This document shows positions 24,044-58,279 of a DNA stretch of 64,000 nt, piece by piece; the stretch's first letter is position 1, and every line of letters starts with the position of its first letter. Origin of the DNA: Methanomassiliicoccales archaeon (lineage in GTDB: Archaea > Thermoplasmatota > Thermoplasmata > Methanomassiliicoccales > UBA472); contig JAPKYJ010000024.1 in NCBI GenBank assembly GCA_026394375.1, positions 101,577-165,576 on the forward strand, given 5' to 3'. The notes below the pieces were generated by a model. It made no database searches. It had not been told where the DNA came from and was given only the letters and a program-made list of their open reading frames with translations. A program made the translations under genes and the position numbers.

Positions 24044-27000
24044 ATGATAAAGCAGGTCCAAGCGAACTACGATCCCGCGGAACTCGAGAAAAGGGTTCGG
24101 GAATACTGGAAACAGAGCAATGCCTACAGGAAGACCAAGGAGTTGCGGTCTTCCGGGACGGACTTCTATTTCGTGGACGGCCCTCCTTACACTACTGGCT
24201 CGATCCATTTAGGCACGTCCTTTAACAAGACGCTCAAGGACACTTTCATCCGCTACAAGCGCATGCAGCGCTTCAACGTGCGCGACCAGCCCGGGTATGA
24301 TATGCACGGGCTTCCGATCGAGGTCAAGGTCGAACAGTCCATCGGGGTAAAGAACAAGAAGGAGATCGAGGAGTACGGCATCGATCGCTTCGTCAGCACG
24401 TGCAAGAACTTCGCCGTGGACTTCCAGAAGAAGATGACCGAACAGTTCAAGGAGCTCGGGATCTGGATGGACTGGGATAATCCCTATCTCACTATCACAT
24501 CCAACTACATCGAGGCGGCTTGGTGGACTCTTAAAAGGGCATATGACAAGGGGTTGCTCATCCCCGCCAACCGCGTACTCTCATGGTGCCCTCGCTGCGA
24601 GACCGCTCTGGCGGAGGCGGAGATCGAGTACCGGGACGAGAAGGACCCTTCCATCTACGTGCGCTTCCCGCTCAAGGACGATGAGGGCGTTTCATTGCTC
24701 ATCTGGACCACTACTCCCTGGACGCTGCCAGCGAATATGGCGGTAGCGGTGCATCCGGACCTCACCTATGCCAAGGTCAAGTACTTCAAGAAGGAAGGCG
24801 GCGAGACGGTCATCTTGCTGGAGAGCCTGGTGGAGCAGGTAGGGCAGCTGGCAGGCTACGAGGGCTACGAGGTTCTGGAAGGCATCGAGGGCGATGACCT
24901 CATCGGCCTGGAGTATGTGCCCCCGTTCCTGAACGATGTGCAATTCCAGCGCGAGACCACGGGGAAGTGGGTGCACCGGATCATCCCCTCCACCACGGTG
25001 GCCGCGGAGAACACCGGCCTGGTGCACATCGCCCCCGGACACGGCCCTGAGGACTTCGAACTGGGCAAGGAGTTCAACCTGGAGCCCTTCTGTCCGGTCG
25101 ATGAGTCAGGGAAATTCAGCAAGGACATGCCTCCGAAATACGCGGGAATGAACGTCAAGGAGGCCAACAAGCACATCATGGAGGAGCTCAACGAACGTGG
25201 CCTGATGTACTCCGTCGGAACGATCGTCCACCGCTATGGACACTGCTGGCGCTGCGATTCAGGAGTGATATTCCGCAACACCGCGCAGTGGTTCCTCAAG
25301 ATCACCCAGATAAAGAACCTCATGCTGGAGGAGATCGACAAGGTGCGCTGGACGCCGGATTGGGCCGGGTCGTCGAGGGAATACGACTGGACGGTGAACG
25401 CGCGCGACTGGTGCATCTCCAGGCAGAGATACTGGGGCATCCCCTTGCCGATCTGGACATGTTCCTGCGGAGAGATGAAGGTCATCGGTTCCACCATAGA
25501 CCTGGAGAAGGGCGATGGCTACCGAAAGGACATGGAACTGCACCGCCCATGGATCGATGCCGTCACCTTCAAATGCACCCACTGCGGCAAGACCATGAAG
25601 CGTGTGCCAGATGTCTTGGACGTTTGGTTCGATTCCGGGGTGGCCTCTTGGGCTCAGCTGGGCTTCCCCAAGAGCCGAACCGAGTTCGACAAGTGGTGGC
25701 CATGCAAGTGGATCACCGAGGCGCATGATCAGACCCGGGGCTGGTTCTACTCTCAGCTGGCAGCGGGTTGCATCGCCTTCGACCGGGCTCCCTATGAAGG
25801 CGTGCTGATGCATGGCTGGGTGCTCGATCCGAACGGTCAACCGATGTCCAAGTCCCGGGGCAACGTCATCGAACCGGAGAAGGTCATCAAGGACTATGGT
25901 GCGGACGCCCTGCGCTTCTACCTCATGCGCACCAACGCTCCCTGGGAAGACACCTGCTTCCAATGGGATGGGGTGAAGAACGCGCGCAAGACCCTCAATA
26001 TCCTTTGGAACGTGGTGAACTTCGCAACCACCTACATGTCCATCGATTCGTACGATCCCAGCAAGATGTCCGTGGACGCTCTGCGAGGGAACCTCCGACC
26101 CGAGGACCGGTGGATGATCTCGCGCACGGAGGGAATGAAGAACGAGGTCACCAAGTACCTCAATTCCTACGAACTGCACAAGGCCTGCCGGGCCCTGGAG
26201 GACTTCGTGCTGGAAGATCTGTCACGCTGGTACGTTAGATTGATCCGCGACCGTATGTGGAAGGAAACCGGCGACCTGGACAAGCTCGCCGCCTACCGCG
26301 TGCTGTTCGATGCCATCTCCGCTCTCAATCGGGCCCTGGCGCCCTTCTGCCCTCACATCACCGAGGAGATCTTCCAGCACATGGAAGGGAACAAGGAAAC
26401 GGTGCACATGTTGGACTGGCCGGTCTCGGACCAGACCAACCGCGATGAGCGCCTGGAGCAGAACGTGGCCACGGTGCAGGAGCTGGTGGAGATCGTCACC
26501 AAGGAGCGCCAGTCGCGCAACATCAAGCTCCGTTGGCCGATGAAGCGCATCGTGGTCCGGGCGGCGAACAACGACGCCTTGGAAGCGATGAAGTCGCTCG
26601 AGTCCGTCCTCCTCTCCCAAGCCAATGTGAAGAAGGTGGAGTACATTCCACCGGGTCAGGAATGGAACGAGATCATCCTCTCCGCGGTCCCGAACCCCAA
26701 TGCCATTGGGAAGGTCTACCGGCAATGGTCCAGCAAGATCGCCGTTCTTCTCAAGTCCCGGCCGGCAAAACAGATCCGGGAGTGCATCGACAAAGGCTCG
26801 TACTCCCTGGGCATCGAAGGACAAATGATCAAGATCGAGCCCAACATGGTCACTTTCACAAGCTCGTTACCGGAGAAGGTCGTGGGGGTCAAGTTCTCCA
26901 GCGGCGACCTCTACATGGACTTCGAGATAACCCCAGAGATAGAGGCCGAAGGATTCACTCGAGAGCTCACCCGGCGCATCCAGCAGATGCGCAAGGACAT

Positions 27001-28237
27001 GAAGCTGGACGTGGAGGAGTTCGTGCGAGCAGAGGTCAACGCACCGGTCCGCCTGGTGGAGTACTTCCGGGTGTGGAAAGAGCACATCATGAACGAAACG
27101 CGCTGCCGGCAGCTGGAGTTCACCGAGTCCCCACATGGAGATCACACCGCGGAATGGGATGTGGAAGGTGAGCATCTGCAAGTCTCGCTGGTCTCGCTCC
27201 ATTTCAAGGAAGCCATGGGCCAGCTTATGACCATCTCGGGTCTATCGCAGAGCTCGGCCATCACCCTCATCGAAGCGGGGCACCGGATCCTCAACGACGT
27301 CAAGCCCTTGACCGAAGACCAGCTGGTGGCCAGCGGGCTTCCCAGGACCGAGGCCAAGAAAGTGGTTCACTTCCTTAGCCGAGCAGGGGTCGAGGAGATC
27401 AGCCCCGCACCCGCTCAGGCCGCGGCCACGGTCATAATTGCCATGCCTAAGGAGAAGCTGATGCCTTACCTCCTGCGGGTCCCGCGCATGAATGAGGTCA
27501 AGGCTGAGATGCTCTATGAGGCGGGATTCAACGCCCTGGACAAGATCAAGGCCGCGAGCAAGGAATCGCTCCGCACCGTCAAAGGCATGGGCGGCAAGAC
27601 CGTGGACGAACTGGTCCAGTATGCCGCTCGCGGCGGTTTCGAGGCCGTGGTGAAATGCAATTCCTGCGGAGCCGACGTCGGGCCCAATGCGGTCACCTGC
27701 TCGAACTGCGGAACCAAGGTGCCTTCCGAGCATCTGGTGGAGGGGGAGGAAGAGGTCGAGGCTGCCCCGCCGGTTGGCCCGGAGATCGAGCTGGAACGCT
27801 CATTCACCTACCTCATAAAGGAGGAGAAGTCGGAGCGCTCCTACCACATGTTCGAGAAGGCCATGACCATGGGGATGAGGGGGTTCTGCGTCACCCGCAA
27901 CTACCCGCTCAAGATAAAGGCCAAGTACAACTTGGGCGAGACACCCATACTATGGCTCTCCAACGTGGGCAAGGAGAGCAGCATCCGGCCCAAGGACCTG
28001 GAGAAGCTGAGCGTCTCACTGGAGCAGTTCCTGGGGACGGAGGGCGGAGTCATCCTCCTGGACGGCCTGGAGTATCTGATCACCAATAACAACTTCCTCA
28101 CCGTGCTCCGGCTGGTGCAGTCGCTCAGGGATCAGGTGGCGATCAACCATTCCATACTCATGCTGGCCCTGAACCCTTCGACGCTGGACGCGCACGAGCT
28201 CAATCTGTTGGAGAAGGAAGTGGACGCCACCATTTGA
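24044..28237 (+). CDS. ileS: isoleucyl-tRNA synthetase with a ~330-aa C-terminal extension (HhH motifs, zinc ribbon, DUF835-like domain)
   Basis: 1397 aa. Class I signatures PPYTTGSIHLGT and KMSKSRGN, plus an editing domain. A canonical archaeal-length core (~1060 aa) is followed without a stop by HhH-like repeats, CNSCGADVGPNAVTCSNCG, and a DUF835-like tail (GFCVTRNYP...ILWLSN...ILLDGLEYLITNNNF...LALNP). Confidence 0.95.
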   Translation: MIKQVQANYDPAELEKRVREYWKQSNAYRKTKELRSSGTDFYFVDGPPYTTGSIHLGTSFNKTLKDTFIRYKRMQRFNVRDQPGYDMHGLPIEVKVEQSIGVKNKKEIEEYGIDRFVSTCKNFAVDFQKKMTEQFKELGIWMDWDNPYLTITSNYIEAAWWTLKRAYDKGLLIPANRVLSWCPRCETALAEAEIEYRDEKDPSIYVRFPLKDDEGVSLLIWTTTPWTLPANMAVAVHPDLTYAKVKYFKKEGGETVILLESLVEQVGQLAGYEGYEVLEGIEGDDLIGLEYVPPFLNDVQFQRETTGKWVHRIIPSTTVAAENTGLVHIAPGHGPEDFELGKEFNLEPFCPVDESGKFSKDMPPKYAGMNVKEANKHIMEELNERGLMYSVGTIVHRYGHCWRCDSGVIFRNTAQWFLKITQIKNLMLEEIDKVRWTPDWAGSSREYDWTVNARDWCISRQRYWGIPLPIWTCSCGEMKVIGSTIDLEKGDGYRKDMELHRPWIDAVTFKCTHCGKTMKRVPDVLDVWFDSGVASWAQLGFPKSRTEFDKWWPCKWITEAHDQTRGWFYSQLAAGCIAFDRAPYEGVLMHGWVLDPNGQPMSKSRGNVIEPEKVIKDYGADALRFYLMRTNAPWEDTCFQWDGVKNARKTLNILWNVVNFATTYMSIDSYDPSKMSVDALRGNLRPEDRWMISRTEGMKNEVTKYLNSYELHKACRALEDFVLEDLSRWYVRLIRDRMWKETGDLDKLAAYRVLFDAISALNRALAPFCPHITEEIFQHMEGNKETVHMLDWPVSDQTNRDERLEQNVATVQELVEIVTKERQSRNIKLRWPMKRIVVRAANNDALEAMKSLESVLLSQANVKKVEYIPPGQEWNEIILSAVPNPNAIGKVYRQWSSKIAVLLKSRPAKQIRECIDKGSYSLGIEGQMIKIEPNMVTFTSSLPEKVVGVKFSSGDLYMDFEITPEIEAEGFTRELTRRIQQMRKDMKLDVEEFVRAEVNAPVRLVEYFRVWKEHIMNETRCRQLEFTESPHGDHTAEWDVEGEHLQVSLVSLHFKEAMGQLMTISGLSQSSAITLIEAGHRILNDVKPLTEDQLVASGLPRTEAKKVVHFLSRAGVEEISPAPAQAAATVIIAMPKEKLMPYLLRVPRMNEVKAEMLYEAGFNALDKIKAASKESLRTVKGMGGKTVDELVQYAARGGFEAVVKCNSCGADVGPNAVTCSNCGTKVPSEHLVEGEEEVEAAPPVGPEIELERSFTYLIKEEKSERSYHMFEKAMTMGMRGFCVTRNYPLKIKAKYNLGETPILWLSNVGKESSIRPKDLEKLSVSLEQFLGTEGGVILLDGLEYLITNNNFLTVLRLVQSLRDQVAINHSILMLALNPSTLDAHELNLLEKEVDATI

Positions 28238-35939: not shown

Positions 35940-37241
35940 GTGGTCAATGATATCGAATTCCTCTACCACCTGATCATCGCGGCGGGGGTAGGGGCTCTGG
36001 TGGGCGTGGAGAGGGAGCACCACAAGGGCGATGACGTCATCATCGCTGGCATCCGCACTTTCCCCCTGGTCTCGCTATTGGGCTTCATGCTCGCTTTCCT
36101 AGGCAGGAACGGCAACGCCTTGGGAGTGGACGGAGGAGGGTCGTTGAACCTGGCCGTGCTCATCGGGCTGCCCATCGTGGGAGCCTTGGCCGTGGGCCTG
36201 CTCTACATCCGCTTTCAGATAGGCGCACCTGGTCTGACCACCCCCTTCGCTCTGGTGCTCACCTACATCAGCGGCGTCCTGGTCGGCTACGGCCTGATCA
36301 TGGAAGCGGTCGTGCTCTCCGTCACCATCACCTTCCTTTTAGTCTCCAAGCGCAGGCTGCATAAGTTCGCCCAAGTCCTGGACGATGAGGAGCTCATCTC
36401 CGCCCTGCAGTTCATCACGGTGGCGTTCATCGTCTACCCGCTGACGCTGCAAATCGCCCTTCCCGCCCCTTACGATGTGTTCAACCGGGGAATGGCGCTG
36501 GACATCAGTTCCCTCTTTCTGATAGTCATCTTCGTCTCCTCGATCTCCTTCGTATCCTTCCTCCTCATCCGCTGGAAGGGAGCTTCGTTGGGCATGAAGT
36601 ACTCCGGCCTTCTCGGAGGACTGGTCAGCTCGGAGGCGGCGACCATTTCCCTCTCCAATCTGGCGAAGCAGAAGAACGAGCTGGTCACGACCGCAGCGGC
36701 GGGCATCCTCATGGCCAACGCCACCATGTTCGTGCGGGACCTGGCAATCTGTGGCTTCGCCGATCCCAGTCTGGCCACGGCCACCATCCTCGCCCTGCCG
36801 TTGGTGCTTTTGTTCGGGGTGAACATGCTGCTCGGCCTGACCTTCAAGGTGCAGCAAAGCAAGGCGGAGCTGGAGGTCCGCTCGCCCTTCTCCATCGGTC
36901 CGGCGCTGAAATTCGGGGCGTTCTTCGTGGCCATATCAGCCATGGACGTTCTGATCCAGGACTTGTTCGGCAGCCAAGCGATCTACCTGATCGCCCTGGG
37001 CGGCCTGGTCTCATCGGCGGCGGTGGTGGCCTCGGTGTCCACTCTAGCTTTCGTCGGTACGATCGACCCGTGGACCGCAGCGGTCACGGCCATCCTGGCC
37101 ACGGCCATCTCCTCAATCAATAAGCTGGTCCTGTCCCGGGCCACCTGCCAGGATGTGTCCAAGGCGGTCCTGGGACGCATGACCCTGGTGGCAGCGCTGG
37201 CCATAGTGCTGACGGTAATGGTCCTGGTGCTCAGAATCTAG
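35940..37241 (+). CDS. MgtC/SapB-family plus DUF4010-like integral membrane protein
   Basis: 433 aa polytopic protein with an MgtC-like N-terminus (AAGVGALVGVEREHHK...AGIRTFPLVSLLG). Confidence 0.65.
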   Translation: MVNDIEFLYHLIIAAGVGALVGVEREHHKGDDVIIAGIRTFPLVSLLGFMLAFLGRNGNALGVDGGGSLNLAVLIGLPIVGALAVGLLYIRFQIGAPGLTTPFALVLTYISGVLVGYGLIMEAVVLSVTITFLLVSKRRLHKFAQVLDDEELISALQFITVAFIVYPLTLQIALPAPYDVFNRGMALDISSLFLIVIFVSSISFVSFLLIRWKGASLGMKYSGLLGGLVSSEAATISLSNLAKQKNELVTTAAAGILMANATMFVRDLAICGFADPSLATATILALPLVLLFGVNMLLGLTFKVQQSKAELEVRSPFSIGPALKFGAFFVAISAMDVLIQDLFGSQAIYLIALGGLVSSAAVVASVSTLAFVGTIDPWTAAVTAILATAISSINKLVLSRATCQDVSKAVLGRMTLVAALAIVLTVMVLVLRI

Positions 37242-37941
37242 CCTTCAGGACGACGATGCCTTCGCTCCGGGAGATGTCGATGGACTGCTTCCCCGTGAGG
37301 TGATTGGTGCCACGCATCTTGAGCACCTCCAAGTACTTCCGCCTGGCTCCGCCCTCTTCGGAGAGCATGAGCAGCACAATGCCGTCCACCGCGTAGGAGA
37401 CCTCCGGCGGATATATCTCCCCTGGGCCGACCTCGCCAGTGACCAGTGTGGTCGCGTTCCAATTCTTCAGACGATTGAAGAGATCGAAGAGGAACAGGCG
37501 GTAATCGCCCTTGAGCATGCCTCCTACCACCGTGATGGGGTCGATGACGATGCGCTGGGGCACCACCTCAGCGATCTTCTCCTCCATGGCCGCCAGGATC
37601 TGGCTAGCATCCAGCTCGCGCATCATGTTGCCCAGGTCCATGTACACTATCTGATCTCCGAAGAAATCCCTGTCCATGAAGTCGAACTGCGAGGCGTAGC
37701 GTAGCATCCACTGGGTCGGCTCGCTCAGGGTGGTGAAATACAGCCCTTGCTCGCCTCTCTTCGCCCCCTCGCACAGATATTTGAGTGCGAAGGTGGTCTT
37801 GCCCGTGCCCGCGGGGCCAGAGATGAGGACCACGGACGGGAACGGGAATCCTCCCTCGATCATCTCGTCCAGCCCCGGGATCCCCGTAGGGATGCGAACC
37901 AGGTCCATCCTCTTCGTACGCTCATCGCTTTTCTTGTCCAT
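37231..37941 (-). CDS. single-domain KaiC/RecA-superfamily ATPase
   Basis: 236 aa. IPTGIPGLDEMIEGGFPFPSVVLISGPAGTGKTTFALKYL (Walker A), Walker B-like RIVIDPI, and YLEVLKMRGTNH. Confidence 0.85.
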   Translation of the reverse strand: MDKKSDERTKRMDLVRIPTGIPGLDEMIEGGFPFPSVVLISGPAGTGKTTFALKYLCEGAKRGEQGLYFTTLSEPTQWMLRYASQFDFMDRDFFGDQIVYMDLGNMMRELDASQILAAMEEKIAEVVPQRIVIDPITVVGGMLKGDYRLFLFDLFNRLKNWNATTLVTGEVGPGEIYPPEVSYAVDGIVLLMLSEEGGARRKYLEVLKMRGTNHLTGKQSIDISRSEGIVVLKARF

Positions 37942-43207: not shown

Positions 43208-44149
43208 ATGACGAAGCAGAGGCCGGTTAGGGACGTACAGCTGATCGATGGCATGACCGTCGACTCCTTGGTCAGGGAACTGAAGCAATCAGGAGGCTTC
43301 ACCGGCCGCAAGCTGGCAGATGCGGTGGACATCATCGAGAAGATGATGAGGCGAGATTGCACGGTCTTCCTTTCGTTCCCAGCTTGCATCATGGCCACTG
43401 GCACCCGCGGCGTCATCGTGGAGCTGGTCAAGAGGAAGCTGGTGGACGTCATCATCACCACCTGTGGCACCCTGGACCACGACCTGGCCCGCACCTGGAA
43501 GAAGTACTATCACGGTGATTTCTTCATGGACGATGCCGACCTCCGGCATAAGGGCATCAACCGATTGGGCAACGTGCTCGTTCCTGACGAAAGCTACGGC
43601 CTGATCCTGGAGAAGAAGCTCATCCCCATGTTCGAGGAGATCCTCCGGGGCAAGGATTCCATCTCCACCTGGGAGCTCATCGACCAGGTCGGTTCCCGCA
43701 TCGAAGATGAGAAATCGCTCCTGCATTGGTGCCACAAGAACCGAGTGCCCATCTATGTCCCGGGCATCACCGACGGCTCCTTCGGCAGCCAGCTCTGGAT
43801 GTACTGGCAGACCCATCGTGCTCTGAAGATCGACCTCTTCCGCGACGAACAGGAGCTCTCGGACATCACCTTCGAGGCCAAGGAGACGGGCGCGATAATC
43901 GTCGGGGGCGGGATCTCCAAGCATCATACGATCTGGTGGAACCAGTTCCGCGGAGGCCTCGACTATGCTGTCTACTTGACCACCGCTACCGAGTACGATG
44001 GCTCGCTCTCCGGCGCTCAGGTCAGAGAGGCGATCTCCTGGGGCAAGGTCAAGGAGGGGGCGGACCAGATAACGGTGGAGGGGGACGCGACCATCACCCT
44101 GCCCATGGTGGTAGCGAGCCTCATAGATAGGTTGGGTGGCTCCCGGTGA
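43208..44149 (+). CDS. dys: deoxyhypusine synthase
   Basis: 313 aa. VFLSFPACIMATGTRG, IITTCGTLDHD and GGGISKHH motifs. Confidence 0.9.
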   Translation: MTKQRPVRDVQLIDGMTVDSLVRELKQSGGFTGRKLADAVDIIEKMMRRDCTVFLSFPACIMATGTRGVIVELVKRKLVDVIITTCGTLDHDLARTWKKYYHGDFFMDDADLRHKGINRLGNVLVPDESYGLILEKKLIPMFEEILRGKDSISTWELIDQVGSRIEDEKSLLHWCHKNRVPIYVPGITDGSFGSQLWMYWQTHRALKIDLFRDEQELSDITFEAKETGAIIVGGGISKHHTIWWNQFRGGLDYAVYLTTATEYDGSLSGAQVREAISWGKVKEGADQITVEGDATITLPMVVASLIDRLGGSR

Positions 44150-45138
44150 AGCGGGTAGTGGTCATCAAGGGGGACGGCATAGGCAAAGAGGTCATCCCTC
44201 AGGCGGTGCGGGTGCTCCAGGCCGTCACTAGCGATCTGGAGCTTGTCCCGGCGCACATGGGACTGGAGTGCAACGCCATCTATGGCTGGTTCCTGCCGCC
44301 CAAGACCCTGGAGATCATCAAGGGCTCCGATGCCGTGCTGTTCGGAGCTATCACCACCCCTATTGCCGACCCGGACTACCGATCTCCTCTGCTCTTCCTT
44401 CGGCGAGAGCTCGATCTCTACGCGAACGTCCGACCGGCCAAGAAGATCATACCGAACATCGGGGTGGTGGACCTCGACCTGGTGCTGGTGCGTGAGAACA
44501 CCGAGGGCATGTACACTGGCGTGGAAAGGGAGGAAGGCGATGCCATCATCCTGGAGAGGAAGGTGAGCGAGAAGGCATGCCGCCGCATCGTCCGCTACGC
44601 CATCGACCTCTGCAAGACACGCGGGCTGCAGCGCATACACTGCGTGCACAAGGCCAACGTCATCCGCAGATCGGACGGTCTGTTCCGGCGGGTGTTCTTC
44701 AAGGAGATGGAAGGGACCGGTCTGGAGGCAAGAGAGATGCTGGTGGACGCCGCGGCCGCGGCCCTCATCACCAGGCCGAAGGAGTTCCAATGCATCGTCA
44801 CCCTGAATCTATATGGTGATATCCTCTCCGACGAAGCGGCCGCGCTGGTAGGAGGTCTGGGCTTCACCCCTTGCGGCAACATCGGAGATCGCTACGCCTT
44901 ATTCGAGCCGTGCCACGGTTCGGCCCCGGACATAGCTGGCAAAGGCATAGCCAATCCCACGGCCACCATCCTCTCGGCGACGATGATGCTTCGGCACCTG
45001 GGCATGCTGCGAGAGGCGGAGACGGCGGAGGAAGCCCTTACAGATACCTATCGTGCTGGAATCGCCACACCAGATGCCGGAGGAAGCCATTCGACCACCG
45101 CTTTCACGGATGAAGTGATCTCCCGCTTGGTCGGGTGA
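44146..45138 (+). CDS. isopropylmalate/homoisocitrate/isocitrate dehydrogenase-family enzyme
   Basis: 330 aa. GDGIGKEV, LDLYANVRP, VRENTEGMYTG and NLYGDILSDEAAALVGGLG motifs. 4-nt overlap (GTGA: GTG start, TGA stop) with dys. Confidence 0.85.
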   Translation: MKRVVVIKGDGIGKEVIPQAVRVLQAVTSDLELVPAHMGLECNAIYGWFLPPKTLEIIKGSDAVLFGAITTPIADPDYRSPLLFLRRELDLYANVRPAKKIIPNIGVVDLDLVLVRENTEGMYTGVEREEGDAIILERKVSEKACRRIVRYAIDLCKTRGLQRIHCVHKANVIRRSDGLFRRVFFKEMEGTGLEAREMLVDAAAAALITRPKEFQCIVTLNLYGDILSDEAAALVGGLGFTPCGNIGDRYALFEPCHGSAPDIAGKGIANPTATILSATMMLRHLGMLREAETAEEALTDTYRAGIATPDAGGSHSTTAFTDEVISRLVG

Positions 45139-45702: not shown

Positions 45703-46692
45703 GTGATGTCAGAGCGGGGTGCTTCCATGGGAAAGAGATCAGGAATACATGTGAGATCCACAATTTTCGTGCTTATGCTGCTTTTGAGTGCGTTCTTCGT
45801 CGTTGCCACGGATACGGTGTCCGCAGCCGACAGCGACTATACCTATACAACGAGCGGCAGCCCCGCCGTTGCCACTATCACGGGATACACTGGCGCTGGC
45901 GGAGCGATCACGATCCCCTCCACATTAGGTGGGTATGCCACAGTGGCCATCGGAGACTCTGCGTTCTACTCCTGCACCTCCCTGACCTCCGTGACCATTC
46001 CCAACAGCGTCACGTCCATCGGGGACTGGGCGTTCTACAACTGCACCTCCCTGACCTCCGTGACCATTCCCAACAGCGTCACGTCCATCGGGGACGGTGC
46101 GTTCGCCGTCTGCACCTCCCTGACCTCCGTGACCATCCCCAGCAGCGTCACGTCCATCGGGTCTATGACGTTCAGTGTCTGCACCTCCCTGACCTCGATC
46201 GATGTGAATACAGGCAACGCGAACTATGCCAGCATCGATGGCGTGCTTCATAACAAAGCCATTACTACACTGATCCAGTACCCGGGCGGTAGGGTAGGGG
46301 CGTTCACCATCCGCAGCAGCGTCACGTCCATCGGGGGCTGGGCGTTCAACTCCTGCACCTCCCTGACCTCCGTGACCATCCCCCGCAGCGTCACGTCCAT
46401 CGGGGAATATGCGTTCTCCTCCTGCACCTCCCTGACATCAATTACATTCCTGGGGCTCGTTGCGCCGACCACCGTTGGTGCGAATTGGATCCTAGATACA
46501 CCCATGGGAATAAGAGGCCACGCATACCCCGCCTCGAATTTCCCTGCCCCGGGTGGCGATTTTCATGGGCTGACGATGGGTGCGGTCATCGGCAGCCCGG
46601 CGAGCGACAATACAATGCTGATATTAGTGGCAGTGATCGCGATCGCCGTGGTGGTGGCGGTGCTGCTCGTCCTACGCAAGCGCAAGAAGTAG
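45703..46692 (+). CDS. BspA-type leucine-rich-repeat cell-surface protein with signal peptide and C-terminal TM anchor
   Basis: 329 aa. N-terminal hydrophobic signal (IFVLMLLLSAFFVVA). About seven 23-aa repeats (CTSLTSVTIPNSVTSIGDWAFYN). C-terminal LILVAVIAIAVVVAVLLVLRKRKK. Confidence 0.8.
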   Translation: MMSERGASMGKRSGIHVRSTIFVLMLLLSAFFVVATDTVSAADSDYTYTTSGSPAVATITGYTGAGGAITIPSTLGGYATVAIGDSAFYSCTSLTSVTIPNSVTSIGDWAFYNCTSLTSVTIPNSVTSIGDGAFAVCTSLTSVTIPSSVTSIGSMTFSVCTSLTSIDVNTGNANYASIDGVLHNKAITTLIQYPGGRVGAFTIRSSVTSIGGWAFNSCTSLTSVTIPRSVTSIGEYAFSSCTSLTSITFLGLVAPTTVGANWILDTPMGIRGHAYPASNFPAPGGDFHGLTMGAVIGSPASDNTMLILVAVIAIAVVVAVLLVLRKRKK

Positions 46693-46931: not shown

Positions 46932-46950
46932 GTGCAGGGGGTGCGATTTG
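46932..46950. repeat. 19-bp direct repeat (proximal att site inside tRNA-Leu)
   Basis: Identical to 45190-45208. Covers the acceptor 3' strand and part of the T arm. Confidence 0.7.
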
Positions 46951-47016
46951 AACACACGGACCGCTAGGGACTAGACCCTCAATCTAGCGCCTTTGGCCAG
47001 GCTTGGCTACCCCTGC
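46933..47016 (-). tRNA. tRNA-Leu(GAG)
   Basis: Hand-folded: GCAGGGG TA GCC AAGCCTGGCCAAA GGC G CTAGA TTGAGGG TCTAG [long variable arm] GTGTG TTCAAAT CGCAC CCCCTGC A. Class II tRNA, CCA not encoded. Confidence 0.85.
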
Positions 47017-47147: not shown

Positions 47148-47450
47148 GTCGCCAGGAGAGGGAGGGCGGCCGACGGTAGGACTTCGGTCCGGCTGAGGAA
47201 GGTCCCCCCTCGATGAGAAAGGTGGACCACGCGAGTGGTCAGGCGAGAGCCTGGGCAAGGGCACAGAAACGGCACAGCCCCGACCGAGGATGATCCGCTT
47301 GGCGGTGACGTTGGTCGGGGATTTGGTGAAACGGCGACTCCCCACCCGAGCAAGCCCAAACAGCCGGGATGACCTCTCAGGACCGGCGGGTAGGGTGCTT
47401 AGTTGAATGCCGCCTGAAACAGAAGGGGGCCTATTACCCTCACCTGGCAC
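47148..47450 (+). ncRNA. rnpB: RNase P RNA (archaeal type A)
   Basis: Conserved blocks: GAGGAAGGTCC (CR-I-like), GGGCACAGAAAC, GGTGAAACGG, GCAAGCCCAAACAG, AGTTGAATGCCGCC...ACAGAAGGGGGCC (CR-V-like). The terminal helix pairs GCCAGGAGAGGG (47151-47162) with CCCTCACCTGGC (47437-47448). No credible ORF. Confidence 0.7.
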
Positions 47451-47760: not shown

Positions 47761-48246
47761 GTGAAGATTACCTCGGGCAGGCTTTACTTGTTCAAGGAGA
47801 GAGTGCCGCTGCGAACGCATCAGATCCTAAGAACGGAGCTCCACGGGGGACGGCCGACGCTGTACATCTCGAAGCATTCGCCCGCGCAATTGAGGACGCA
47901 GTTCGATTTCGATCCGAGCATCATGCATACCTTGTGGCTCAGCCCGAGACCGGAGCCGGATTGCATTCCGCCGATGAACCTGGGGATCTTCGAGAAGAGA
48001 GTGGACGAGTTCATAGCGGAAAGCCCGGACGGGATCATCGCGCTCAACGGCATCGATGTGCTGGAGATGTGGAACGGACTGCGCCCGGTCATCGACGTCC
48101 TGCGACGGGCTCAGAGCAAGGTCTCTTTGTATCAGACCAATCTGCTCATCTCCCTGGACCCCAAGATGTACCGAGAGAATACGCTCACAGAGCTGGAGAA
48201 TATCTCCGACGAGGTAGTCAGCTCAGTCTGCGAAGCCGACTCATAG
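47761..48246 (+). CDS. DUF835-like domain protein
   Basis: 161 aa. LYISKHSP...TLWLS...IIALNGIDVLEMWNG...LLISLDP aligns with the other DUF835-like copies in the window. Confidence 0.6.
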   Translation: MKITSGRLYLFKERVPLRTHQILRTELHGGRPTLYISKHSPAQLRTQFDFDPSIMHTLWLSPRPEPDCIPPMNLGIFEKRVDEFIAESPDGIIALNGIDVLEMWNGLRPVIDVLRRAQSKVSLYQTNLLISLDPKMYRENTLTELENISDEVVSSVCEADS

Positions 48247-48418
48247 GTAACAACTAGATTTGCGAAGGGTACCATGCGAAAGGCATGGACACCCGCCTTC
48301 AGTTCATTCTGGACAAGGTGATTGCGGAGCGCACCTCCGTCAGTCCTTCCTAACGCGATCGGGAGAATGTCGTCGGCGGACACGTGGAAGCGCCTTGAGT
48401 TGGGCGAAGGAAAACCAT

Positions 48419-49156
48419 ATGCCCAAGCAATCCCTAGCGAGACACGTGAAGCTCATCGGACTCAAGAAAGAGGGCAAGAGCGTGAGCGTGCAGTTCTACG
48501 GTTGTCAGCTTCGTTGCGGCTATTGCACCCACCTCAAGCAACCGAGGACGGAGCATGAGCTGCAGGAGGTGCTAGAGCTCATAGCCGATCCGAAGGTGGA
48601 AGACGTCTACATCGGCGGCGCGGAGCCCACGGTCCAGAAGAAAGAACTGCTGGAGCTGCTGCAACGCCTGCAACGTATGAACCGGCGGGTGACGTTGAAG
48701 ACCAACGGCCATGACCCCCAGTTCCTGCGCGATTCCCTCGGCCTGGTGGACATGTATATCTTGGAGATCAAGTGCCCCTTGGACGATCTAGACTGTATAG
48801 CCACGCTCACCGGGCTCTCTCGGGAGAGAGCTGAGAAGTACGCGTCATCATTGAAGCAGAGCCTGGAAGTGCTCCGAGGCGCCAAAGTGAGGATCTGGAT
48901 CCGGGTCATCCCAGGATACGTCACCCTGGACAAGGTAGGATGCCTGGGAGACCTGATCGCGGGAACGGCCACCGAGGTCTACCTCATCCAGTTCTTGAGC
49001 GCGCCTGAGAACGACGCCCCTTTCGACGGCATCGACACTCCTTCCCCGGCCGAAGGCGAGATGGTGGCCATGGCACGGAGATTGCTGGAGTTCGTTCCGA
49101 ACGTCTACGTGCGCGGCAGGGATTTCAAGAGCGACTTCCGAGCGGGAAGGCAGTAG
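48419..49156 (+). CDS. radical SAM protein (activating-enzyme-like)
   Basis: About 245 aa from the ATG at 48419. CQLRCGYC (CxxxCxxC) cluster and an IGGAEPT SAM-binding motif. The upstream part of the ORF-track ORF is not protein-like. Confidence 0.8.
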   Translation: MPKQSLARHVKLIGLKKEGKSVSVQFYGCQLRCGYCTHLKQPRTEHELQEVLELIADPKVEDVYIGGAEPTVQKKELLELLQRLQRMNRRVTLKTNGHDPQFLRDSLGLVDMYILEIKCPLDDLDCIATLTGLSRERAEKYASSLKQSLEVLRGAKVRIWIRVIPGYVTLDKVGCLGDLIAGTATEVYLIQFLSAPENDAPFDGIDTPSPAEGEMVAMARRLLEFVPNVYVRGRDFKSDFRAGRQ

Positions 49157-54442: not shown

Positions 54443-54970
54443 TTGATCGCTGAGACGCCCAGGAACGCGGATAGCCGTTACGCCACCGTAACCCTCAGTT
54501 CTGGAAAGATGGTCCTGGCCTTCGACTATGGACGCACCTATCTGGTGATGGGTGAACGAATCGACAAAGCCATGCGAATTGCGCAGGATTTCGTTTTCTC
54601 CGGCAGCAATGTGATGTGCATCTCGCGAATGCATCCGGACCTTATCGGCGAGCGCTGGGCTGGTAAGAAGGTGGATACCATTTGGCTCAGTGAAAGGCCC
54701 GGAGAACGCAACGTTCCTCCGGATCAGCTGCAGAGCTTGGTGCACCGAGTGCTCACGTTCGCCAACGGGAAAAAGCGCGCCATCATCATCATCGATGGGA
54801 TCGAGTACCTGGCGCTCTTCAACGACTTTCACCGGCTGCAGATGTTCTTCGAGCAGCTCAACGACATAGCGATGGAAAGCGGATCGATACTCCTGGTGGC
54901 GCTCGATCCTAGACTGTTTGACCAACGCTCAATGGCGCGGCTGCGACGCTTTGCTGAGGTTGTGAACTAG
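54443..54970 (+). CDS. DUF835-like domain protein
   Basis: 175 aa (TTG start). VMCISRMHPDLI...TIWLSE...IIIIDGIEYLALFNDF...LLVALDP. Confidence 0.6.
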   Translation: MIAETPRNADSRYATVTLSSGKMVLAFDYGRTYLVMGERIDKAMRIAQDFVFSGSNVMCISRMHPDLIGERWAGKKVDTIWLSERPGERNVPPDQLQSLVHRVLTFANGKKRAIIIIDGIEYLALFNDFHRLQMFFEQLNDIAMESGSILLVALDPRLFDQRSMARLRRFAEVVN

Positions 54971-55499
54971 GCAGCATCGCGCTGAGCTCCTCTGCCTTCA
55001 GGCGCGGGAAAACGGAGAACAACTGATCCAGGTCACGCTGCTCGAAGGTCAGGGGATCGATGCTCACCAGCATTTCGGCGTTTTGCTTGAGTAGGCTCGC
55101 TTCCATGTCCCTGAGGAATCCCATGACCTTGTTCAGATCGTTGTAGAGAAGAAGGTACTCCAGACCATCCAGGAAGACGGCCGTTTCCTTTCCTTCCTTG
55201 ATGGCTCCGCGCAGGGACTTGGAGACCTGGCTCAGGACCTTGGGCTGCATGACATCCTTGCCCTTGCAGCTGCTTAGCCAGAAGCAGCGTGCCTCTGGCA
55301 GGTCGTACTTCTGCATGACGTACTCTGGATGCATCCGGCTCACGCACACCCCTTCCACGCCGGTCTTCAGCAACCTGGAGTACAGCTGGAATCCCAGTCG
55401 AGGATAGCCTTCCACGAGCAAGGAGATCCTGCGGTCGTTCTTGTTAATCACGATTCTCATGCCTCCTTGAGGTTCGCGTCTCATTCGAGGGCTATCCAC
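54909..55499 (-). CDS. DUF835-like domain protein
   Basis: 196 aa. GVCVSRMHPEYV...CFWLSS...VFLDGLEYLLLYNDL...MLVSIDP. Its 3' end overlaps the convergent paralogue by 62 nt. Confidence 0.6.
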   Translation of the reverse strand: MDSPRMRREPQGGMRIVINKNDRRISLLVEGYPRLGFQLYSRLLKTGVEGVCVSRMHPEYVMQKYDLPEARCFWLSSCKGKDVMQPKVLSQVSKSLRGAIKEGKETAVFLDGLEYLLLYNDLNKVMGFLRDMEASLLKQNAEMLVSIDPLTFEQRDLDQLFSVFPRLKAEELSAMLPSSQPQQSVAAAPLSVGQTV

Positions 55500-55573: not shown

Positions 55574-58279
55574 GTGAACAGGACCACGCGCAAGTCATTC
55601 CTCACCATCAAGGAGAAGGTCCTGCTCCACCTTCTCACCTTCCATCGCTTCTGCCAGGATGCCGATGCTCCCAAAGGGGTGACCCAAGAGGGCATAGCCA
55701 TCGGCGTGGGTGTGGGAAGGAACAACGTGACCAAGCTCGTCGTCGAGCTATCCGCGGCGGGAGCGGTGGAGATCCAGAACAAGCATGTCAAGGGGCTGTC
55801 CAGCACGCGCAAGGTCTACTTCCTTACCCATCGAGGGTTCGAAGAGGCCCTGACCCTGAAGAAGGAAGTGGAGGCGCTCGAGGTCCGGGTGGTGGACATG
55901 CAAGGTCAGGAGCACCGGGAGGAGTTCGGTCGGGTGGGCGTGTACCTGCCGAGGCGCTTTTCCTTGGTGGAGCTGGCCTTGGGAGTGGAGAGGGGTCGAT
56001 TCGACTGTGCCTCCTTCCACGAAGGCAAGGTCAAGGAGGAACGAAGGTTCGTCGATTTCACTGACCGGAAGCCAACGATCCGCGTGTTCTACGGTCGGGA
56101 AGAGGAGCTGGCCCGCCTCAACGAGCTCGTGGACTCGGAGGTCACTCGCCTGGTTGTAGTTCAAGGCATCGCGGGCATCGGCAAGACAACCCTATTGGCC
56201 AAGTTCGCGCAGGACCGACGGGAAAGGGTGAACACTTTCTGGTTCCGCATCCATGAGTGGATGAACCTCAAGGGGTTGTTGCGGCCTATCGCCGAGTTCC
56301 TCTCCCAGCTGGGTAAGAAAGGATTGGAGTGGTACCTGACCCAGACCGAAGCCCCCAATCTAGGCGAGATCAGTCATCTCCTGGAGACGGACCTAAGGGA
56401 TGTGACCGCGCTCATCATCCTGGATGATGTGCACAAGTCGGAGCGGGGGGTGTTGGATTTTCTGGGCGCCTTGATGGGCACGCTCGAGCACACCCCGAAC
56501 ATCAAGCTGATATGCACCAGCCGGGAATCGTTAGCCTTCTACCACCGTAGCGCGGTCATGAATGGAGTGGTGGTGGAGATCCATCTAGGTGGTTTGGACC
56601 GGGAAAGCAGCATGCGCCTGATGCGCGACCGTGCACTGCCCGAGGAAGCGCTTGAAGACATCTACCGCATCACCAAAGGCCACCCCTTCTTCATGGAACT
56701 GGTGGAGGACCCCAAGCTGGCTCTGGGCAAGAGCATCCGCATGTTCATCGAGCAAGAGGTGCAATCCAAGCTGGAGATCACGGAAAAACGCATCCTGGAG
56801 ATCGCCTCGGTCTTCCGTTATCCAGTGTCGACCGATTCCTTCTTCGTCATGGAAGAGGAGATCGCCAAGGAACAAGGCCAGGGTCACAAGGAACGTTCCT
56901 ACCAGGATTATATGGTGGACTACGACACCATCGAGGTCCTGATCCGAAAGGCATTGCTGAACGAGACCTCCGGGCGCATGGTAGGCATGCACGACGTCAT
57001 GCGCGAGTTCTTCTACTCCAGACTTTCGCCCAGACAGAGGAGGGTGTACCACAAGGCCGCTTCCAGGTACTACCAGGGAGACGAGACCGCCCCCTCTTAT
57101 GTCGAGGCCCTATACCACAGCATCATGGCAGGCGAACTCGATGTGGCGGCTCAGATAGCCGCGGCCAATGGCCGGGATATCCTCACCCGGGGTTATGCCA
57201 GCCTCCTGGCTCCATTGCTGGCGAGCATCTCGGAAAGGCAGGGGGGCGAAGTGAGGGACCACATCGAGATACTCCTCCTGCAAGCGGAGATATGGGACAT
57301 CCAGGGAGAATGGGAGAAGGCGCTCGATCGATACGTGGAGCTGCTGAGCACGGCCTCGCCCGAAAATGACCGCCGGCTGCTGGCGGAAGTGAACCGCCGA
57401 GTGGGAGTGGTGCACCTGCGCCGCTACGAGTACCAGGAAGCGGGCGTCTATCTGAAACGCAGCCAGGAAATCGCAGAAAGCATCCAGGACTCGCACACCC
57501 TTACCCAAGTGCATTATGACCTGGGGGGAGTGGCGGAACGGGAGGGGCGCTTCCAAGAGGCCGTAGAACATTTCACGCGGGCCGAGGAGCTGGCCAAGTC
57601 CATCGGCGACGATGTTGGCCACGGCAAGGCGATTCATGGCATCGGCAAGGCCTATAGTCAGCTCAGGGACCTGGAAACGGCGGTGCGCTACAAGCGGCAG
57701 GCGCTGGAGGTGCTGGAGCGGACCTCGGACCAGGACGAGATCGCCAAGGTCTGTGCTTCCCTGGGGAATGACCTCTGGAACCTCGGGTTCAGGGACGAAG
57801 GCATTCATCAGCTCGAACGGGCAGTGGAGCTGGCATGCTCGGTAGGTGACATTGTCGTTCAGGGCTATGCTCTATCCAACCTGGCAGGCTCGTACGTGGA
57901 GATCGGCAACGTGAAGAAGGCGGAGATCACGCTCGAACGGTCGGAGCAGATCGCCCAAAAACTGAACGAGCGCTTCTTGTTGGCCGCCTCGCACCTGTAT
58001 CGTGGCTATCTATATCATAAGAAGGGGGACTGGGAATGGGCCAAGGAGGAGTTCGCCACAAGCTTGCAGATAATGAGGGATGCCAATTCGCCCCTGAGGC
58101 TCTGTTACTGGATGTGCGAGATCGCAGTGACCTACCGTGAGAATTCGGATCTTGAAGGGGCTGACCAGCTGTTCGAAGAGGCCATGACGATTGCCAAAGG
58201 CACTGGCCAAGAAAGCCTTGTCAAACAAGTGGAAGAGATGAAGCAGTCCGTCAAAGGCTCAAAGAAAATGGAGAAGTAA
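55574..58279 (+). CDS. wHTH - STAND/AAA ATPase - TPR repeat protein
   Basis: 901 aa. N-terminal wHTH-like segment (GVTQEGIAIGVGVGRNNVTKLVVELSAAGAVE). FYGREEELARL...VVVQGIAGIGKTTLLAKF (Walker A) and LIILDDVHK (Walker B). The C-terminal ~350 aa are TPR-like repeats. Confidence 0.8.
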   Translation: MNRTTRKSFLTIKEKVLLHLLTFHRFCQDADAPKGVTQEGIAIGVGVGRNNVTKLVVELSAAGAVEIQNKHVKGLSSTRKVYFLTHRGFEEALTLKKEVEALEVRVVDMQGQEHREEFGRVGVYLPRRFSLVELALGVERGRFDCASFHEGKVKEERRFVDFTDRKPTIRVFYGREEELARLNELVDSEVTRLVVVQGIAGIGKTTLLAKFAQDRRERVNTFWFRIHEWMNLKGLLRPIAEFLSQLGKKGLEWYLTQTEAPNLGEISHLLETDLRDVTALIILDDVHKSERGVLDFLGALMGTLEHTPNIKLICTSRESLAFYHRSAVMNGVVVEIHLGGLDRESSMRLMRDRALPEEALEDIYRITKGHPFFMELVEDPKLALGKSIRMFIEQEVQSKLEITEKRILEIASVFRYPVSTDSFFVMEEEIAKEQGQGHKERSYQDYMVDYDTIEVLIRKALLNETSGRMVGMHDVMREFFYSRLSPRQRRVYHKAASRYYQGDETAPSYVEALYHSIMAGELDVAAQIAAANGRDILTRGYASLLAPLLASISERQGGEVRDHIEILLLQAEIWDIQGEWEKALDRYVELLSTASPENDRRLLAEVNRRVGVVHLRRYEYQEAGVYLKRSQEIAESIQDSHTLTQVHYDLGGVAEREGRFQEAVEHFTRAEELAKSIGDDVGHGKAIHGIGKAYSQLRDLETAVRYKRQALEVLERTSDQDEIAKVCASLGNDLWNLGFRDEGIHQLERAVELACSVGDIVVQGYALSNLAGSYVEIGNVKKAEITLERSEQIAQKLNERFLLAASHLYRGYLYHKKGDWEWAKEEFATSLQIMRDANSPLRLCYWMCEIAVTYRENSDLEGADQLFEEAMTIAKGTGQESLVKQVEEMKQSVKGSKKMEK

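Follow-up and report, generated by a model that had tools for sequence, protein, structure and literature searches.

Aminoacyl-tRNA synthetases have acquired non-catalytic parts and non-catalytic relatives in several lineages. The HisRS-like domain of GCN2 and the protein HisZ are synthetase-derived pseudoenzymes that act as sensors or regulators, and some eukaryotic synthetases carry appended tRNA-binding domains of the Arc1p/EMAPII/Trbp111 type or Lys-rich extensions. For archaea, genomic evidence alone has led to the proposal that KaiC-like ATPases are the main signalling hubs, and proteins of the RecA/KaiC fold function as rings or filaments. The domain DUF835 has been listed as 'iKaiC', an inactivated KaiC-like ATPase domain and the output domain of REC-DUF835 response regulators, and its homology to KaiC has been claimed (Galperin et al. 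2018, PMC5847659). In vertebrates, the isoleucyl-tRNA synthetase (IleRS) IARS1 bears UNE-I, a tandem UBX-like C-terminal domain that docks the enzyme to EPRS1 in the multi-synthetase complex (PMC9643514). In the present study we analysed a 64,000-nucleotide stretch of the genome of a Methanomassiliicoccales archaeon (hereafter the window; assembly GCA_026394375.1, contig JAPKYJ010000024.1, positions 101,577 to 165,576), in which one gene joins an IleRS to a tail that ends in DUF835.

The gene (24044-28237, plus strand, stop codon included) is a single open reading frame (ORF) of 1397 amino acids (aa) with no internal stop, so that the core runs into the tail without interruption, as the original prediction had stated. 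Its N-terminal part comprises the class I catalytic (Rossmann) domain with the inserted CP1 editing domain (aa 20-631, nucleotides (nt) 24101-25936; Pfam tRNA-synt_1 PF00133, E 1e-125), the anticodon-binding domain (Anticodon_1, aa 688-835, nt 26105-26548; PF08264, E 6e-37) and the archaeal/eukaryal-type IleRS C-terminal domain DUF5915 (aa 858-1049, nt 26615-27190; PF19302, E 2e-22), with which the canonical enzyme ends at aa 1049. The catalytic motifs (HIGH in the form HLGT at aa 55, and PMSKS at about aa 600) and the CP1 editing motifs (TTTPWT within WTTTPWTL, and GHGPEDF within PGHGPEDF) are intact, and HIGH, MSKS, TTTPWT and GHGPEDF are also intact in 62 out of 62 orthologues (see below). 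Judged by these sequence features, the protein qualifies as a class Ia archaeal/eukaryal-type IleRS and is apparently active. By the features tested it is a member of both IleRS and DUF835.

The tail, all of it on the plus strand, opens with a first HhH (helix-hairpin-helix)-like helical domain resembling the N-terminal domain of RadA (aa ~1066-1115, nt 27239-27388). This domain is degenerate in the window copy, which gave no Pfam match in this region; its helices were modelled by AlphaFold2 with a pLDDT (predicted local confidence) above 90, and it fits the pattern IPGxxxxxAxxLxxAGY kept in the orthologues, in which two HHH_5 matches were found. It is followed by a P/A-rich linker that is predicted to be disordered (aa 1116-1129, nt 27389-27430; pLDDT <50 at tail residues 83-96) and by a second domain of the (HhH)2 type, HHH_5 (aa 1142-1192, nt 27467-27619; PF14520, 40.9 bits against a cut-off of 27, E 3e-10; E was 3e-9 in the whole-protein Pfam search and 1e-10 with the tail alone as query). 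Thus, of the two HhH-like segments claimed originally, the second was identified by profile, and the first by its confidently predicted fold and its orthologue pattern. A zinc ribbon comes next (aa 1205-1222, nt 27656-27709). The ribbon had been predicted correctly, with the exception of its spacing, which is C-x2-C-x10-C-x2-C and not x11; the corresponding profile match, Zn_Ribbon_1 (PF13240, aa 1204-1226), is borderline, at 22.6 bits for the whole protein and 25.5 bits for the tail alone against a cut-off of 25. Behind an acidic linker, also predicted to be disordered (aa 1230-1244, nt 27731-27775; pLDDT <50 at tail residues 197-211), lies the DUF835 domain, a predicted KaiC/RecA fold lacking a P-loop (aa 1253-1397, nt 27800-28234). 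Its Pfam match (PF05763, aa 1261-1392, E 2.4e-32) reaches 112 bits against a cut-off of 33.1 and covers profile positions 3-135 of 136. Taken together, profile searches and structure prediction bore out the domain assignments made at the outset (IleRS core, HhH, zinc ribbon and DUF835), as well as the relationship of the tail domain to free DUF835 paralogues in the window.

Compared with the REC-DUF835 and PAS-GAF-DUF835 signalling proteins of Thermoplasmata and Methanomicrobia, the fusion has the same general plan, i.e. DUF835 at the C-terminus of a multidomain protein. It differs from them in that its N-terminal module is an essential-type translation enzyme, not a receiver or a ligand sensor, and in that its DUF835 forms a separate subfamily. 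The closest precedent on an IleRS is the unrelated docking domain UNE-I. Both are lineage-specific non-catalytic additions to the C-terminus of an eukaryal/archaeal-type IleRS; docking by the tail of the fusion is a proposal, whereas the partner of UNE-I is known, and UNE-I has a ubiquitin-like fold where the fusion has a RecA-like one, occurs in another lineage and was acquired independently.

To survey the distribution of the tail, its conserved peptides were used to scan GTDB genomes, one for each species. A relative was found in 194 species genomes. The best 80 of these 194 loci, all of them from Methanomassiliicoccales or Thermoplasmata metagenome-assembled genomes, were compared in detail. 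In 62 of the 80 one open frame, 1372-1504 aa in length, spans both the core (aa 1-1060) and DUF835. Synteny around the gene is conserved: FEN1 upstream, the fusion gene, a convergent AcnX-swivel/NUDIX gene and then AcnX. It might be argued that a missed stop or a frameshift in the assembly has joined separate IleRS and DUF835 genes. Public gene calls for this region are indeed often fragments (up to 630 aa in length), and the gene is broken in several long-read assemblies. Since 62 independent genomes keep one continuous frame, a missed stop or frameshift, a caveat of the original prediction, is excluded as the source of the fusion. Full-length proteins are moreover present in the databases, and the fragments can be put down to short contigs, to long-read assemblies prone to frameshifts and to a gap in a scaffold, which leaves the chance of such an artefact negligible. 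We are therefore nearly certain that the protein, i.e. an IleRS followed by a spacer with two HhH-type domains and a zinc ribbon and then by DUF835, is a genuine, vertically conserved fusion.

The exceptions among the loci are attributed to contig edges, to long-read assemblies with several frame breaks or to a scaffold gap. At L012, L013, L019, L023, L028, L030, L034, L037, L052, L054 and L057 the DUF835 frame stops short of the full IleRS core. These are mostly long-read assemblies with names of the type 'MFD ... contig_', and the pattern resembles frameshift errors; L013, L030 and L034 are of other assembly types. At L089 a free-standing Zn-ribbon-DUF835 orthologue seemed to occupy the syntenic position. 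This candidate was rejected as a scaffold-gap artefact, because tblastn detected an IleRS core immediately before it, separated by a run of N. Among the loci examined, the tail had no orthologue that truly stands alone. A different case is L002 (6983-8836; GCA_041320395.1, 944-kb contig), where a 611-aa ORF starting from about IleRS residue 765 comprises the anticodon domain, DUF5915, two HhH domains and DUF835 without a catalytic domain, with a minus-strand EamA gene directly upstream; this is either a truly truncated copy or a chimeric assembly.

In a first database search all matches were of 630 aa or less, which suggested split genes. On closer examination this was rejected, the causes being short contigs, frameshifts in long-read assemblies and odd gene calls, and an exhaustive HMMER scan retrieved full-length fusion proteins of 1228-2329 aa that are on record as 'isoleucine--tRNA ligase', 'isoleucyl-tRNA synthetase', 'class I tRNA ligase family protein' or 'DUF835 domain-containing protein'. 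An example of an odd gene call is L003 (3410-7729; GCA_014361295.1, 1.78-Mb contig), in which a continuous 1439-aa frame is present and only a 242-aa 'DUF835 domain-containing protein' within it has been recorded, with no IleRS gene. A conserved internal start for separate expression of the tail was also considered and rejected, the Met before the second HhH domain not being kept in the orthologue alignment.

The AlphaFold2 model of the tail had a mean pLDDT of 87, with disorder confined to the two linkers, and DUF835 modelled alone reached a pLDDT of 95 and a pTM of 0.90. Foldseek searches with DUF835 alone matched FlaH/ArlH (4yds, 4wia; E 4.8e-6, TMq 0.70), PH0284 (2dr3; TMq 0.73) and the CI and CII domains of KaiC (TMq 0.64-0.70), as well as RecA. 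In a sequence search of this domain against PDB chains nothing meaningful was detected (best E 0.2). On the strength of the model, DUF835 of the tail is predicted to adopt a RecA/KaiC-type fold, and the connection of DUF835 with KaiC-like ATPases, made in the original prediction, agrees with both this fold match and the 'iKaiC' assignment (PMC5847659). The domain shares with these ATPases a Walker-B-like strand (hhhDGhE), which was universal in 63 sequences (62 orthologues and the window protein). It differs from them in its size (~145 aa versus 225-240 aa) and in its lack of a P-loop: the Walker A motif ([AG]x4GK[ST]) was found in 0 of the 63 sequences, in either the last 160 or the last 360 aa. 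It also displays no detectable profile similarity to the KaiC-family protein encoded in the window. The missing Walker A motif indicates that the domain is neither an active KaiC-family ATPase nor RadA/Rad51.

The latter point bears on the idea that a RadA-like tail binds DNA and ties IleRS to chromatin, replication or repair. In Foldseek the whole tail was colinear with full-length RadA/Rad51, with which it shares its domain order, HhH at the N-terminus and then a RecA-fold core, and FEN1 lies upstream in the conserved synteny. Unlike RadA/Rad51, the tail has no ATP-binding motif, only a minimal core and optional HhH domains (dispensable in one relative, P0199), and it is not a recombinase; the best matches of DUF835 alone are KaiC-like proteins (FlaH, PH0284) and not recombinases, and adjacency to FEN1 may be mere inherited synteny. 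A DNA-linked second function is thus very improbable.

Comparison with the 62 orthologues revealed that no other segment of the fusion protein is as conserved as DUF835. Mean identity to the window protein was 74% for DUF835, 69% for the catalytic domain, 61-62% for the anticodon-binding and C-terminal domains, and 20-47% for the HhH domains, the zinc ribbon and the linkers (25-47% for the HhH and zinc parts). These values suggest that DUF835 is more strongly constrained than the active site. IleRS-borne DUF835 constitutes a highly conserved subfamily of its own, in which RPKDLEKL and EYLxTNNxF are invariant.

In contrast to DUF835, the spacer is very variable. Its length ranged from 123 to 292 aa in the 62 orthologues, with a P/A-rich linker of 8-73 aa; the number of HhH domains varies, and the zinc ribbon is missing or multiplied. 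Among the more distant proteins (given P numbers here), P0199 has a spacer of only ~40 aa without HhH or zinc ribbon. In relatives of 1644-2329 aa the spacer measures 300 to ~1150 aa and consists of low-complexity sequence rich in E, P and K, interspersed with HhH, Zn-ribbon and TPR pieces; the longest (~1150 aa) is that of P0124. The linker before DUF835 is strongly acidic across the orthologues (about -20 net charge per 100 aa). The high plasticity of the spacer implies that the conserved unit is an IleRS body plus a tethered DUF835.

These data also bear on a possible role of the tail as a helper acting in cis, in which non-specific binding by the HhH domains and the zinc ribbon, with or without DUF835, would concentrate tRNA-Ile locally or increase its affinity for aminoacylation. 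Points in favour are the presence of HHH_5 and a zinc ribbon, the likeness of the HhH domains to the N-terminal domain with which RadA/Rad51 binds DNA, and the retention of the anticodon-binding and C-terminal domains even in degenerate relatives. However, the HhH and zinc parts show the lowest conservation, differ in copy number and do not occur in P0199, and the average HhH domain is not basic (net charge -1.4 and -1.1). With up to 1150 aa, the spacer appears unsuited to precise positioning of a tRNA, and the tail persists where the aminoacylation motifs are gone. We consider this explanation improbable.

The persistence of the tail was most evident in seven 50%-cluster representatives from more distant Thermoplasmatota (P0137, P0144, P0149, P0150, P0152, P0170 and P0192), which lack HIGH, KMSKS, TTTPWT and GHGPEDF altogether. 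Their identity to the window protein is 21-27% in the catalytic domain and 46-54% in DUF835. In three further proteins (P0122, P0124 and P0139) KMSKS has been lost; P0124 is located in the same S24e-DUF359-RpoE neighbourhood as the gene of the window. Rough distance-based neighbour-joining trees suggest one main 'dead' clade and at least one independent case, and within the dead clade the catalytic bodies are 24-39% identical and the DUF835 domains 49-69%. Since these relatives keep the tail after the catalytic motifs were lost, its role is probably independent of aminoacylation chemistry. No recurrent partner gene was noticed in the gene contexts of the dead forms examined; P0137 lies directly downstream of an archaeosine tRNA-guanine transglycosylase gene (TGT + PUA) at L086 (3245-9899), and the same arrangement was seen at L087.

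The degenerate proteins, with a synthetase-like body and a regulatory module, would follow the same pseudo-synthetase logic as GCN2 and HisZ. The window protein differs in keeping all its catalytic motifs, loss of the full set having been found only in the seven distant relatives, and the attached domain is a dead KaiC-like one, not a kinase or a metabolic enzyme. By analogy, the fusion may be likened most closely to the sensor-DUF835 proteins and, conceptually, to the synthetase-derived sensors.

Our tentative proposal, to which we give slightly less than an even chance, is that the tail provides IleRS with a non-catalytic docking or signalling role. DUF835 would be the functional core of the tail and would serve as a protein-protein docking or oligomerisation ('output') module, the tethered domain either self-assembling or joining KaiC-family ATPases or free DUF835 paralogues. 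The IleRS body, which binds isoleucine and tRNA-Ile, would thereby be coupled to a regulatory network, in the place that PAS-GAF or REC sensor modules hold in other DUF835 proteins, and the HhH domains and zinc ribbon would be accessories that act as spacers or make weak contacts with nucleic acid. We favour a regulatory or scaffolding role outside catalysis because relatives of the domain form rings or filaments, its paralogues are linked to sensors, and it is retained after catalysis is lost. The window itself encodes three free DUF835 proteins and a KaiC-family ATPase, in line with this proposal. The idea put forward in the original prediction, that the tail could couple Ile charging to a signalling or localisation network, is hypothetical and gains indirect support from the pattern of conservation and from the dead paralogues with their retained tail.

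Several points weigh against this proposal. The strong conservation of DUF835 could alternatively stem from contacts within the protein, between this domain and the IleRS body. We infer oligomerisation of DUF835 only by analogy with ring-forming RecA-fold proteins, and no binding partner of the tail was identified in this analysis. The window encodes one member of the candidate partner class, a single-domain KaiC-family ATPase of 236 aa located 9 kb downstream of the fusion (37231-37941, minus strand; PF06745, E 1e-44). When the tail alignment was compared with this protein by hhalign, the probability was 0.5% for a shallow profile against a single sequence, so the relationship to KaiC draws on the fold and the literature. 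A KaiC gene was also considered as a conserved neighbour and rejected, the KaiC of the window and that found near P0124 (L085, 4024-4722) being only 26% identical. Finally, the genomes of the dead relatives may or may not hold a second, active IleRS, and the fusion may or may not be the only IleRS of its own genome, of which the analysis covered 64 kb.

A related explanation is that DUF835 serves only to oligomerise IleRS or to hold it in a cellular assembly, such as a multi-synthetase-like cluster or one near the ribosome, and conveys no signal. Such a purely structural or localising role agrees with the ring- or filament-forming fold family, the flexible tether, the known case of an IleRS that docks through a C-terminal domain (PMC9643514) and the presence in the same genome of several free DUF835 proteins that could co-assemble. 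The PAS-GAF-DUF835 and REC-DUF835 (PMC5847659) architectures suggest, on the other hand, that DUF835 carries information and is not structural alone; a dead synthetase in a translation scaffold is harder to rationalise, and among the long matches scanned no other aminoacyl-tRNA synthetase or translation factor was fused to DUF835. We regard a scaffold without signalling as somewhat unlikely. A more specific form of the docking and signalling proposal, in which IleRS-DUF835 senses isoleucine or the charging of tRNA-Ile and accordingly joins or leaves rings of KaiC-family ATPases or free DUF835 proteins, following a GCN2-like logic without a kinase, seems to us unlikely, if a shade less so than a tRNA helper. 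If it were true, IleRS-DUF835 would have given rise to dedicated sensors in the form of the dead IleRS-like-DUF835 paralogues that other Thermoplasmatota carry.

The free-standing DUF835 proteins that had been recognised in the window were confirmed by Pfam, and all three can be aligned with the entire tail domain, with identities of 21-28%. These candidate partners are encoded at 47761-48246 (plus strand, 161 aa; E 1e-14, 21% identity), 54443-54970 (plus strand, 175 aa; E 8e-29, 26%) and 54909-55499 (minus strand, 196 aa; E 3e-24, 28%). The last two genes are convergent, with a 3' overlap of ~62 nt, and are directly followed by a gene for a 901-aa STAND NTPase with TPR repeats (55574-58279, plus strand), with which they may form a signalling cluster. 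The first lies immediately downstream of genes for archaeal RNase P RNA (47154-47445, plus strand; Rfam, 215 bits) and tRNA-Leu(GAG) (46932-47016, minus strand), and a radical-SAM gene (48260-49156) comes after it. In the same part of the window a BspA-type leucine-rich-repeat protein (45703-46692, plus strand; LRR_5, 6e-48) is encoded amid otherwise housekeeping genes, near those for deoxyhypusine synthase (43208-44149) and an isopropylmalate/isocitrate dehydrogenase (44146-45138).

At a wider scale, the HMMER scan yielded about 2800 cluster representatives with DUF835 at E <= 1e-3. In the long proteins scanned, the other partners of DUF835 were PAS-GAF sensor arrays (with DUF835 C-terminal), acidic or helical regions, or no known domain. 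The closest non-IleRS relatives of the DUF835 of the tail (~45-52% identity) are P0146 (L090, 4755-7175) and P0142, free-standing proteins of 720-870 aa composed of an extremely acidic D/E-rich N-terminal region, a long helical region and then DUF835. In P0215 (1378 aa) and P0240 (1329 aa) DUF835 is located at the N-terminus (aa 5-152), and the remaining ~1200 aa contain no other Pfam domain.

The original prediction had supposed that attachment of DUF835 to an aminoacyl-tRNA synthetase was undescribed, and had allowed that the fusion might prove to be both widespread and characterised already. It is widespread, as its presence in 194 species genomes indicates, and no paper characterising it was found. 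The literature covered contains no description of an IleRS-DUF835 fusion; the primary account of iKaiC (Makarova et al. 2017, mBio 8:e01959-17) lies outside that coverage and might mention it. The architecture is thus visible in databases and apparently undescribed.

As regards annotation, current pipelines split, truncate or mislabel the fusion gene, and 'class I tRNA ligase family proteins' whose motifs are dead should be left out when IleRS genes are tallied for metabolic reconstructions or marker-gene sets. Archaea are not known to have either the bacterial RelA/(p)ppGpp or the eukaryotic GCN2 pathway, and little is understood of how they match their capacity for translation to nutrient supply or stress. 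The IleRS-DUF835 fusion offers a concrete, testable entry point into this question, as well as into the function of DUF835.

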